Of a DNA stretch of 64,000 nucleotides, positions 36,598-38,688 are shown one piece after another. The translations under genes and the position numbers were made by a program. Location: NCBI RefSeq assembly GCF_003334335.1, contig NZ_QOWQ01000010.1; one strand, written 5' to 3'. A model generated the notes under the pieces. The model worked only from the letters and a program-made list of their open reading frames with translations, did not search any database and was not told the origin of the DNA. This DNA comes from Escherichia coli. GTDB taxonomy: Bacteria; Pseudomonadota; Gammaproteobacteria; Enterobacterales; Enterobacteriaceae. The stretch's first letter is position 1; the number at the start of each line of letters is the position of its first letter.

Positions 36598-36605
36598 AAT
36601 TCCAG

Positions 36606-36639
36606 AAAAGAGACGCTGAAAAGCGTCTTTTTTCGTTTT
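36606..36639 (+). terminator. Intrinsic terminator after secG-leuU
   Basis: AGACGC-TGAAAA-GCGTCT followed by TTTTTTCGTTTT. Confidence 0.85.
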
Positions 36640-37055
36640 GGTCCTGGTCTGAGGAATGGTTGTCAGGTATCTGTATCTCGTCCAGTTGCTTTACTCGTAG
36701 CTGGTACCTTGAAACGATGGTGCCGGTACGCCTTAGTTATAAATTTTTCCCTTCTACTGACATAATTGGCACTTTATTGTGTCAACTCCAGTTCCGGTAC
36801 GAATACGGATATGTTTACTTCTCGATAAACCATCCTGCTCCTGTCAGTATAACGACTGATGGCTACGTTCTGCGTAATGTTTAGAGACGCATTGATAATG
36901 TTATTTAATTACTGAGAACGCAATGGCCGCATCATTTAAAAAGAAAAAACTAACAGTGTTTCGTTCTGATATGGATCAGAGTTGAAAAACATGTCTGATA
37001 TAAAATTAAACATTGTTGATAATTGTTTATATTGGTTGTGAACTTGGATTTCTGG

Positions 37056-38681
37056 ATGACAGTATTCAACAAATTTGCTAGAACTTTTAAATCTCATTGG
37101 TTGTTGTATCTTTGTGTTATTGTTTTTGGTATTACGAACTTAGTCGCTTCTTCCGGAGCGCATATGGTTCAGCGCTTGCTGTTCTTCGTTCTGACCATCC
37201 TGGTTGTAAAACGTATATCATCCCTTCCGCTTCGCCTGCTTGTTGCCGCACCATTTGTGTTACTGACTGCGGCAGACATGAGTATTAGCCTCTATTCATG
37301 GTGTACCTTTGGTACAACTTTCAATGATGGATTTGCGATTAGTGTGCTCCAGAGTGATCCGGATGAAGTTGTCAAAATGCTGGGGATGTATATCCCTTAT
37401 CTATGTGCCTTTGCTTTTTTATCCCTTCTTTTTTTGGCAGTAATAATAAAATATGATGTTTCCTTGCCGACAAAAAAAGTGACAGGAATATTATTGCTGA
37501 TTGTCATTTCGGGCAGTTTATTTTCCGCTTGTCAATTTGCTTATAAAGATGCAAAAAATAAAAAAGCGTTCAGTCCATATATACTAGCGTCGCGATTTGC
37601 TACCTATACGCCGTTTTTCAATCTCAACTATTTTGCTTTAGCAGCGAAAGAGCATCAAAGATTACTCTCAATTGCAAACACGGTGCCGTATTTTCAATTA
37701 TCAGTCAGGGATACAGGTATTGATACCTACGTGTTGATTGTGGGGGAGTCTGTACGTGTCGACAATATGTCTTTGTATGGATATACACGCTCTACGACAC
37801 CGCAAGTTGAAGCACAAAGAAAACAGATCAAACTGTTTAATCAAGCAATAAGCGGCGCACCTTACACTGCGCTGTCGGTTCCCCTTTCTTTAACTGCTGA
37901 TTCTGTTTTGAGTCATGACATTCATAATTACCCCGACAACATTATTAATATGGCTAATCAAGCAGGATTTCAGACTTTCTGGCTAAGCTCGCAATCCGCT
38001 TTTCGGCAGAATGGTACAGCAGTTACCAGTATCGCCATGCGCGCCATGGAAACAGTTTATGTCAGAGGATTTGATGAATTGTTGTTGCCGCATTTATCGC
38101 AAGCATTACAGCAAAATACGCAGCAAAAGAAACTGATTGTTCTTCATTTAAATGGAAGCCATGAACCGGCTTGTAGCGCCTATCCGCAATCCAGCGCCGT
38201 GTTTCAACCGCAGGACGATCAGGATGCCTGCTATGACAACTCCATTCATTACACAGATAGTTTGCTAGGTCAGGTTTTTGAATTATTAAAAGATCGCCGC
38301 GCCTCGGTCATGTATTTTGCCGACCACGGCCTGGAACGTGACCCTACGAAGAAGAACGTCTATTTTCATGGAGGCAGGGAGGCTAGCCAGCAGGCATATC
38401 ATGTCCCGATGTTTATCTGGTATAGCCCCGTTCTTGGGGATGGCGTGGATCGCACAACGGAAAACAACATCTTTTCGACAGCTTACAATAATTACCTTAT
38501 TAATGCGTGGATGGGGGTAACAAAGCCGGAACAGCCGCAAACGCTTGAGGAAGTGATTGCACACTATAAAGGAGACTCACGGGTTGTGGATGCAAACCAT
38601 GATGTTTTCGATTATGTGATGCTCAGAAAGGAGTTTACAGAGGATAAGCAAGGTAACCCCACCCCTGAAGGGCAGGGTTGA
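37056..38681 (+). CDS. yhbX: Putative phosphoethanolamine transferase / sulfatase-family inner-membrane protein YhbX
   Basis: ORF-track 37023..38681; start trimmed to MTVFNKFARTFKSHW (541 aa). N-terminal transmembrane region plus EptA-like sulfatase domain; visibly AT-rich compared with its neighbours. Confidence 0.88.
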   Translation: MTVFNKFARTFKSHWLLYLCVIVFGITNLVASSGAHMVQRLLFFVLTILVVKRISSLPLRLLVAAPFVLLTAADMSISLYSWCTFGTTFNDGFAISVLQSDPDEVVKMLGMYIPYLCAFAFLSLLFLAVIIKYDVSLPTKKVTGILLLIVISGSLFSACQFAYKDAKNKKAFSPYILASRFATYTPFFNLNYFALAAKEHQRLLSIANTVPYFQLSVRDTGIDTYVLIVGESVRVDNMSLYGYTRSTTPQVEAQRKQIKLFNQAISGAPYTALSVPLSLTADSVLSHDIHNYPDNIINMANQAGFQTFWLSSQSAFRQNGTAVTSIAMRAMETVYVRGFDELLLPHLSQALQQNTQQKKLIVLHLNGSHEPACSAYPQSSAVFQPQDDQDACYDNSIHYTDSLLGQVFELLKDRRASVMYFADHGLERDPTKKNVYFHGGREASQQAYHVPMFIWYSPVLGDGVDRTTENNIFSTAYNNYLINAWMGVTKPEQPQTLEEVIAHYKGDSRVVDANHDVFDYVMLRKEFTEDKQGNPTPEGQG

Positions 38682-38688
38682 TGTCGAA

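Follow-up and report, generated by a model that had tools for sequence, protein, structure and literature searches.

The gene-flux hotspot between conserved core genes is a concept of comparative genomics; the site described here is the gap between the tRNA gene leuU and argG in Escherichia coli. Another kind of described system is the tRNA-associated island with an integrase gene; 'YjgX or YhbX' phosphoethanolamine (PEtN) transferases have been reported for the pheU, pheV and selC islands alike (PMC6174562). We analysed a 64-kb stretch of K-12-like E. coli chromosome (hereafter the window) that matches thousands of E. coli genomes at 99-100% identity and in which yhbX fills the leuU-argG gap. 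The gene is one of the five PEtN-transferase paralogues of E. coli K-12, and its EptA and MCR relatives cause polymyxin resistance. Our main conclusion, to which we assign a probability of about 0.8, is that positions 36640-38687 of the window are a horizontally acquired single-gene yhbX cassette, located at a leuU-argG hotspot and encoding an enzyme of the PEtN-transferase superfamily.

The locus resembles gene-flux hotspots in that it holds lineage-specific accessory cargo with no integrase detected or annotated, and its breakpoints are sharp at the conserved flanks, consistent with exchange by homologous recombination; it differs in being very small, with one gene per cassette. With the tRNA-associated integrase islands it shares adjacency to a tRNA gene, atypical composition (GC content 0.42 versus 0.52) and variable presence, but it has neither an integrase nor an attachment-site (att) direct repeat, and the insertion lies 3' of the tRNA terminator. 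A pheV-type integrase island served as a positive control, and the leuU block does not resemble such an island. An earlier note on this DNA had described 36598-38688 as an AT-rich block of ancient horizontal origin beside a tRNA gene acting as an integration hotspot. The coordinates that it gave proved exact. Horizontal acquisition is borne out by the absence of yhbX from the site in 16 syntenic genomes, so that the gene is not universally conserved in the family, and by synonymous saturation relative to E. fergusonii. The role given to the tRNA is not upheld, since the block starts 42 nt past leuU, after its terminator, and no integrase was detected or annotated at the site.

Composition, boundaries and alleles of the cassette

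The block from the end of leuU to argG (36598-38688) has a GC content of 0.420, compared with a mean of 0.5185 (sd 0.024) over all 2091-bp segments of the 64 kb. It is the minimum of the window: lower values were found for only 5 of the 61,910 segments, each of which overlaps the block. The next independent minimum, 0.473 at 29916-32006 around the greA, yhbY and rlmE intergenic regions, is much milder. Among the 49 genes of at least 150 amino acids (aa) in the window, yhbX, with a GC content of 0.431 (z = -4.2), has the lowest GC content at third codon positions (GC3 0.421, z = -3.1), and the likelihood of its synonymous codons under the usage of its neighbours is the second-lowest (z = -2.1). 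The AT-richness of the block is in line with the earlier note; it is far beyond chance, and the block is compositionally foreign. The segment 36598-37055, which had been described as a 458-bp AT-rich leader, has exactly this length and a GC content of 0.382, but its first 42 bp are the conserved leuU terminator and lie outside the foreign DNA.

When the window is compared with yhbX-less E. coli, homology ends with the final T of the leuU terminator (36639) and restarts at 38688, 1 nt before the argG stop codon. The exchangeable unit is therefore 36640-38687, a segment of 2048 bp with a GC content of 0.421 and breakpoints at 36639/36640 and 38687/38688, of which the left one is common to the E. 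fergusonii-type locus. The conserved left flank contains leuU, the gene for tRNA-Leu (GAG), at 36511-36597 on the plus strand (ARAGORN; Rfam tRNA model, 52.8 bits; annotated as tRNA-Leu in E. coli), followed on the same strand by its intrinsic terminator, for which a terminator scan gave a hairpin with a 13-bp stem at 36605-36634 and a T-run to 36639. The hairpin precedes the gap in 16 of 16 loci from other Enterobacteriaceae and in the alternative E. coli cassettes, and by this comparison the terminator is ancestral, retained in every genus and with every cassette type. The conserved right flank is the convergent argG for argininosuccinate synthase (38689-40032, minus strand; open reading frame (ORF) and annotation), with an amino acid identity of 94-97% across Enterobacteriaceae. 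Between these flanks the cassette consists of 416 bp of cassette-specific AT-rich DNA with a presumed promoter or regulatory role (36640-37055, plus strand) and the annotated yhbX coding sequence (CDS) on the plus strand, an ORF of 541 aa with its ATG at 37056 and a stop codon ending at 38681, which is separated from argG by 7 nt (38682-38688).

The distribution of the cassette was counted over 5426 complete E. coli genomes. DNA of yhbX is present in 5179 of these (95.4%), and 5118 genomes have 80% or more of its length intact. An alternative cassette of 1.2 kb, with a GC content of 0.37 and a GC3 of 0.30, was found in 237 genomes. It consists of one gene, codirectional with argG, as exemplified by E. 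coli STW0522-31 (L083:2459-3669; also L002:6241-8184), and encodes a protein of 317 aa (WP_001012978.1) with an N-terminal XRE-type helix-turn-helix (HTH) domain (Pfam HTH_19, 5e-5) and an uncharacterised C-terminal part of 270 aa; neither PADLOC nor PHROG gave a convincing assignment for this gene. The HTH cassette retains the canonical argG-side terminator AAAAAAAGGCCGCATTTGCGGCCTTT, as in other genera. In a fox isolate, the gene of this cassette is split by IS1. A third, E. fergusonii-type yhbX cassette occurs in 9 genomes. The three types together account for 5425 of the 5426 genomes, with 246 genomes in total carrying a non-yhbX or fergusonii-type replacement. Alternative cassettes are still segregating at the locus in E. 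coli; in effect the site has two to three alleles in this species, and each cassette holds one gene.

Cassettes of intermediate similarity were rare: among genomes labelled as E. coli, one carried a cassette with 80-90% identity as judged by the CDS and three as judged by the leader. Fragmentary representatives with 68-88% identity, considered as candidates for divergent yhbX genes, were traced to error-rich assemblies; one such contig (L094) is 98% identical, with 38 gaps. A Logan contig from SRR3359616 (L093) is collinear with 31056-40409 of the window; over these 9354 bp it is 83.8% identical without a single gap, and many of its ORFs are broken. As a candidate for a divergent species it was set aside, since it looks like a chemical-conversion or error artefact. 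The synonymous substitution frequency (dS) of yhbX within E. coli is similar to that of the flanks. This and the presence of the gene in most genomes agree with the earlier view of an ancient acquisition that is old within E. coli; the accompanying idea of a finished event is too simple, because alternative cassettes segregate at the site and the E. fergusonii copy is xenologous.

The leuU-argG gap and the yhbX family outside the E. coli chromosome

An ArgG-anchored scan of species-representative genomes gave at least 14 loci with rimP-argG-leuU-secG-glmM synteny, including Citrobacter (2), Pluralibacter, Kluyvera, Phytobacter, Superficieibacter, several Enterobacter and Pseudocitrobacter. Loci from Salmonella Senftenberg and Klebsiella pneumoniae, present on chromosome fragments mislabelled as plasmids, were added for a total of 16. 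The gap lacks yhbX in all 16 of these non-Escherichia Enterobacteriaceae genomes, and no YhbX homologue was found within 8 kb of argG in any of the 14 scanned loci. At ten loci the gap measures only 117-568 bp and consists of the leuU terminator, sometimes REP-like (repetitive extragenic palindromic) repeats, and a canonical GC-hairpin argG terminator. Four others hold 1.7-3.6 kb of unrelated cargo, and only Pluralibacter sp. and isolate RIT691 have cargo in common. The Salmonella Senftenberg gap (L112:4982-6467) contains an annotated YwqG-family gene with a GC content of 0.466, compared with 0.572 for glmM, and the K. pneumoniae gap (L113:4976-8555) is annotated with a hypothetical gene, ISKpn18 and an HTH gene. 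A search for integrase homologues found none in the four long gaps, in the 568-bp Superficieibacter gap or in either of the alternative Escherichia cassettes, and the annotations of the Salmonella and Klebsiella gaps list none. Since the cargo is varied, spares both terminators in the other genera and comes with no visible integrase, we conclude that the gap is a recurrent integrase-free insertion/replacement hotspot between two convergent terminators in Enterobacteriaceae.

The contents of some of these gaps were judged by eye. In 'Escherichia sp. ESNIH1' the 3.6-kb gap (L013:9333-12920) has ORFs resembling a metallophosphatase, an HxlR-like regulator, a short-chain dehydrogenase/reductase (SDR) and a phytase, and the gaps of Pluralibacter sp. 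and isolate RIT691 (L006, L025) contain genes for a lipoprotein and an OmpA-like protein. The Pseudocitrobacter faecalis gap (L020:1261-1741) has about four tandem copies of a palindromic unit of about 110 bp, similar to REP elements or bacterial interspersed mosaic elements (BIME), and no gene. In Citrobacter, Enterobacter asburiae and Phytobacter this position is taken by single REP-like elements.

The leuU tRNA does not look like an integration target, because the block starts after the leuU terminator, the cargo of other genera spares the terminators, and no integrase is detected or annotated; the site looks like a permissive gap that is exchanged via its conserved flanks. The breakpoint at 36639/36640 falls 42 nt past the tRNA, not in its 3' end. 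A tblastn search of the block detected no integrase or tetratricopeptide repeat (TPR) gene remnant (best match to the pheV-island integrase, E = 2). No partial copy of leuU was found in the block: the best local alignment score, 13, was reached by 32% of shuffles, and the corresponding figure for the 3' half of leuU was 47.5%. A repeat finder proposed one att-like direct repeat of 20 nt, with a 75% match between 36539-36558 in leuU and 36705-36724, and shuffling showed that it can be attributed to chance. The earlier note, too, had seen no integrase, direct repeat or partial tRNA copy here.

The sole protein lineage with more than 65% identity to YhbX is a cluster (P0310) at 69% amino acid identity (69.5%), whose named members are from E. 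fergusonii. In a collection of 5.8 billion proteins, no relatives at 70-90% identity were among the matches listed, which near-identical E. coli proteins saturated. An E. fergusonii chromosome has yhbX in the same leuU-argG gap and in the same orientation. The flanks in this species are 93-99% identical to the window at the DNA level, with dS values of 0.04-0.33 and amino acid identities of at least 99%, whereas the two yhbX genes are 70.7% identical, with a proportion of synonymous differences (pS) of 0.753, which is saturated, a non-synonymous substitution frequency (dN) of 0.215 and leaders that cannot be aligned. Synonymous sites saturated to this extent next to such flanks exclude vertical descent since the species split, even for a gene without constraint. 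Judged from these alignments, the E. coli and E. fergusonii copies are xenologous, at least one of the species having replaced or separately acquired its cassette.

Relatives of yhbX also occur on mobile DNA. A full-length paralogue with 64.5% amino acid identity and a GC content of 0.437 is located on the E. coli plasmid pRHB40-C01_2 (CP057032; L105:438-2099), and its 90% cluster has 2955 members. On the chromosome, the paralogue is full-length in 455 of the 5426 E. coli genomes and persists as a 3' remnant of about 100 bp, annotated as 'hypothetical protein', in about 1450 more. The copies inspected have island surroundings: in ST131, pheV is followed by an intact integrase gene, a TPR gene and then the remnant (L108:5001-5098), and in strain 746 a degraded integrase fragment and IS1 are found close to the full-length gene (L107:9001-10674). 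A conserved ORF of 65 aa is seen just 5' of the full-length paralogue copies. The next relatives, at 41-48% identity, are scattered over Buttiauxella, Pectobacterium, Mixta and Microvirgula (a betaproteobacterium) and have unrelated surroundings. At 50% identity YhbX forms a cluster of its own, and a collection of 1.84 billion proteins gave only 121 representatives at E <= 1e-30. Paralogues in islands and on a plasmid combined with scattered distant relatives are the pattern of a horizontally moving family, and we conclude that the YhbX gene family moves horizontally. The island and plasmid YjgX/YhbX-like genes belong to the same subfamily as yhbX (65% amino acid identity) and have a similarly low GC content (0.437), but differ in being located beside an integrase gene or its fragment and insertion sequences (IS), or on a plasmid, in lacking the 3' hairpin and the nine-residue tail described below, and in their unrelated upstream DNA.

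The YhbX protein, its upstream region and the junction with argG

The earlier note had described YhbX as an EptA-like membrane protein of the sulfatase fold with no assigned substrate, and Pfam, Foldseek, NCBIfam and the literature, in which the protein has no established function (PMC4013655), all agree. The predicted product is an inner-membrane enzyme of the PEtN-transferase family. Its N-terminal membrane domain, about residues 1-170 (37056-37565, plus strand), has five predicted transmembrane (TM) helices, located by hydropathy at 13-35, 37-55, 59-80, 105-139 and 140-164, and in an AlphaFold2 (AF2) model at 2-31, 34-52, 57-85, 102-131 and 140-169 with high per-residue confidence (pLDDT). 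The model was built from a 48-sequence family alignment and has an overall pLDDT of 93.2 and a predicted TM-score (pTM) of 0.91. The only Pfam domain found is Sulfatase (PF00884, E = 3e-56) at residues 224-467, the periplasmic catalytic domain of sulfatase/alkaline-phosphatase fold (37725-38456, plus strand); an EptA/EptB N-terminal domain was not among the Pfam matches. The best Foldseek matches were full-length Neisseria meningitidis EptA (NmEptA, 5FGN) and MCR-1 (9NWW), and the periplasmic domain of E. coli EptC (EcEptC, 6A82) had a target-normalised TM-score of 0.78-0.80. The matches to the catalytic domains of EcEptC, NmEptA and MCR-1 had target-normalised TM-scores of 0.71-0.80.

Residues E231, T271 (codon 37866-37868), H369, D423, H424 and H449 align to the catalytic positions of NmEptA, a complete EptA-type set. 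Their counterparts in 5FGN are, as we take it, E240, T280, H383, D452, H453 and H465. Among the 48 family members, E231, T271 and H369 are invariant and D423 and H424 are conserved in at least 90%. YhbX is under purifying selection, weaker than that on housekeeping genes: the dN/dS ratio within E. coli is 0.07-0.10 versus 0-0.04 in the neighbours.

Profile scores place YhbX far below the cutoffs of all curated NCBIfam models for these enzymes, with 94.5 bits against a cutoff of 660 for EptA (NF008619), 105 against 493 for EptB (NF008593), 142 against 404 for CptA (NF007933), which by profile score is the nearest of the characterised paralogue groups in E. coli, and 32-71 against 1075-1250 for the MCR models. 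On these scores, YhbX is a bona fide member of the PEtN-transferase superfamily that falls in no characterised acceptor subfamily. It shares with EptA/PmrC and MCR-1, its best full-length fold matches, the five N-terminal TM helices, the periplasmic sulfatase-fold domain and the catalytic residues, but is only 18-21% identical to EptA and MCR-1 in the fold-search alignments, and nothing points to lipid A as its acceptor. The EptC/CptA group, PEtN transferases for heptose I, provides the best periplasmic-domain fold match, but the CptA profile score is below cutoff. OpgE/YbiP is 28.6% identical over residues 198-519. The name of the gene also appears in the 'YhbX/YhjW/YijP/YjdB family', for which yhbX is a namesake (PDB 4KAV title). 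A Keio yhbX knockout turned up in two screens. In one of them its effect was set aside as non-specific, with envelope permeability as one of two reasons given for five knockouts (PMC4551910); the other was a multidrug-resistance screen (PMC9765716). As functional hints these two appearances are weak.

The upstream region (36640-37055) is single-copy, is present in exactly the 5179 E. coli genomes with yhbX and has diverged by 0.4-3.5% within the species. Neither the E. fergusonii leader nor the DNA 5' of the island and plasmid paralogues is related to it, and it has no counterpart of the small ORF conserved 5' of the island paralogues. No Rfam match was found between leuU and argG (E <= 1). 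An ORF of 74 aa at 36660-36884 was considered as a hidden gene and rejected, its changes being mostly non-synonymous. A consensus scan gave a candidate sigma-70-like -35/-10 pair, CTGATA-17-GATAAT, at 36995-37023 on the plus strand, ending 32 nt 5' of the ATG; the number of such sites, 6, is not above that in shuffled sequences (4.8 +/- 2.2), and the candidate promoter is weak. A sigma-32 SELEX peak has been reported in the yhbX-leuU spacer (PMC5493296). The AT content of the block is clearly above average, one trait of H-NS-silenced xenogeneic genes, among which the earlier note had placed yhbX as a probable member. Its 4 TCGATAAATT-like H-NS nucleation motifs, against about 2.5 expected from the window-wide rate, are not an enrichment, and yhbX is not in the supplementary tables of two H-NS studies (PMC4288151, PMC4720273).

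At the 3' end, the relatives of YhbX all end at or before the residues DKQ. In E. fergusonii, a TAA follows DKQ and precedes a hairpin, CCCTGCCC-ATAAAA-GGGCAGGG, and then the argG stop codon. In the E. coli gene a small indel shifts this TAA out of frame, and nine extra codons (38652-38678, plus strand), found in the E. coli-type yhbX only, read through into a GC-rich junction hairpin, AACCCCACCCC-TGA-AGGGCAGGGTT, at 38654-38678. The resulting tail, GNPTPEGQG, is where the pLDDT of the model drops to 52-71. On the minus strand the hairpin starts 9 nt past the argG stop codon, and RNAfold gave -17.7 kcal/mol for the 58-nt segment 38631-38688 of this strand, in which there is also a weak second stem. 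Across 15 E. coli loci the hairpin does not vary, its arm GGGCAGGG is shared and similarly placed in the E. fergusonii cassette, and it was not found after the island or plasmid paralogues. The sharing of the hairpin by the two chromosomal cassettes and not by the paralogues hints that the former may have a locus-specific history.

Where the E. coli yhbX type has this hairpin, other genera and the E. coli genomes with the HTH cassette keep the canonical argG terminator AAAAAAGGCCGC..GCGGCCTT. There is no U-tract beside the junction hairpin on either strand, and the terminator scan found no canonical terminator between yhbX and argG. A hairpin without a U-tract and the inclusion of argG-yhbX among the excludons detected by RNA-seq (PMC12288877) suggest that the argG and yhbX transcripts overlap convergently. 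Both ends of the cassette have been used as supposedly neutral engineering sites, the leuU/yhbX spacer for insertion of a cat marker (bioRxiv 10.1101/2023.02.03.527047) and the argG/yhbX junction for the EASY-edit synthetic operon (PMC12421378), where argG appears without the canonical terminator.

The gene order around the cassette, from ORFs, ARAGORN and E. coli annotation, is ftsH-folP-glmM-secG-leuU-yhbX-argG (convergent)-metY-rimP-nusA. Beyond argG, a rimP leader RNA at 40545-40645 (Rfam RF01770, 102 bits) lies 3' of the tRNA-Met gene metY (40380-40456), as expected for the metY-rimP-nusA-infB operon. The segment 42800-43400 in the 5' part of the ORF 42655-45327, which is infB in E. coli records, has a very strong AT skew of up to +0.50, which we presume to reflect A-rich codons of infB.

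Origin and meaning of the cassette

The cassette probably entered the E. coli lineage before the divergence of the phylogroups and has since then been kept by purifying selection. The exchange of cassettes appears to run via homologous recombination in the conserved flanks (secG-leuU to the left, argG to the right) and not via a tRNA-targeting integrase. Insertion of the yhbX cassette would have displaced the canonical argG terminator, so that the argG and yhbX transcripts probably overlap, and this overlap together with the AT-richness would hold yhbX expression low. From the fold and the active site we infer that the enzyme moves phosphoethanolamine, or a related phospho-headgroup, from phosphatidylethanolamine onto the nucleophile Thr271 in a zinc-liganded site, from where the headgroup would be passed to an acceptor in the envelope facing the periplasm.

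Could yhbX instead be a native gene of Enterobacteriaceae, inherited vertically and lost elsewhere, its AT-richness being due to membrane-protein composition and weak codon selection? The GC3 values of the three thirds of the gene are 0.36, 0.40 and 0.50, so that the third encoding the TM helices is the most AT-rich part, with a T-rich skew typical of hydrophobic segments, and the flank-like dS within E. coli also fits this idea. Yet even the last third is below the window mean of 0.57, and other membrane-protein genes in the window are not AT-rich. Vertical inheritance would further require many precise deletions among the 16 syntenic genomes without yhbX, ten of which have only intact back-to-back terminators, and it conflicts with the saturated synonymous sites between E. 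coli and E. fergusonii and with the 41-48% identity of the nearest other relatives, compared with about 95% for ArgG in comparable genera. We regard this explanation as largely refuted and extremely improbable. An eroded stump of an integrase-type island at leuU, from which the integrase, att repeats and other cargo have since been deleted, would account for a block that is AT-rich and adjoins a tRNA gene, and YhbX paralogues are recurrent island cargo, as in the ST131 pheV remnant, strain 746 and the pheU, pheV and selC islands (PMC6174562). We nevertheless consider it unlikely, given the lack of an integrase or TPR remnant and of a partial leuU copy in the block, the start of the cassette after the tRNA terminator, and the cargo in other genera that spares both terminators and has no detected or annotated integrase. 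Moreover, transcription of the gene in the pheV example heads for the tRNA end of its island, but that of yhbX leads away from leuU.

It is also very unlikely that yhbX is a functionally dead relic on its way to becoming a pseudogene. The lack of an assigned function (PMC4013655), the IS insertions in about 60 of the 5179 genomes, the loss of the original stop codon with the gain of a nine-residue tail and the weak promoter signals would all be expected of such a gene. However, at least 5118 of 5426 genomes have an intact ORF, the dN/dS ratio is far from the value of about 1 expected without constraint, the catalytic residues are conserved and the structural model is confident and well packed; the Keio knockouts in two independent envelope and drug screens (PMC4551910, PMC9765716) point the same way as weak evidence.

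Several observations weigh against a horizontally acquired cassette kept by selection. The AT-richness of the 5' third of yhbX is partly due to the hydrophobic TM domain: the plasmid paralogue has the same 5'-to-3' GC gradient, and part of the gradient is therefore a property of this domain. The roughly 1% of E. coli genomes in which yhbX is disrupted by an IS (about 60 of 5179) indicate that the gene is dispensable in some settings. No donor of the cassette was found, and the date of entry is only bracketed, the gaps of E. albertii, E. marmotae and other Escherichia being outside the comparison. The E. coli and E. fergusonii cassettes have position, orientation and a similar 3' hairpin arm in common, and a single insertion of great age with later replacement of the allele may have taken place instead of two separate acquisitions, although the likeness of the hairpins is short (8 + 6 nt) and could be due to chance. 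Finally, the nine genomes labelled 'E. coli' in which the fergusonii-type cassette occurs (NZ_CM128605.1 and eight others from RefSeq) match E. fergusonii at 98.8% identity along about 9.9 kb from ftsH to infB but K-12 at only 93% in glmM, and may be either misassigned E. fergusonii or carriers of a large fergusonii-derived segment.

There is also a broader reading. The gap would be a dedicated, recombination-driven 'surface-decoration' slot in which Escherichia lineages swap highly diverged alleles of an orphan PEtN-transferase subfamily that also rides near the integrase end of pheV, pheU and selC islands. YhbX would modify a non-LPS (lipopolysaccharide) acceptor, such as enterobacterial common antigen, periplasmic glucans or a surface protein, selection by phages, colicins or host peptides would keep the diversity, and arginine-dependent antisense read-through from argG would gate expression. 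As a whole we find this scenario unlikely.

The gene (b3173) is already annotated in K-12, its acquisition is ordinary, old horizontal gene transfer, and nothing here overturns the current understanding. The added value is modest and lies in the picture of cassette exchange and in natural allelic and null comparators. There are sound reasons to regard yhbX as accessory, foreign DNA, and the exact boundaries of the cassette are useful where the leuU-yhbX and argG-yhbX junctions serve as 'neutral' engineering sites. For the substrate search, natural yhbX-less E. coli and the 69%-identical E. fergusonii allele are ready comparators, and for Enterobacteriaceae the leuU-argG gap adds a documented case of a small hotspot, placed between two terminators and free of integrases, at which cassettes are exchanged.

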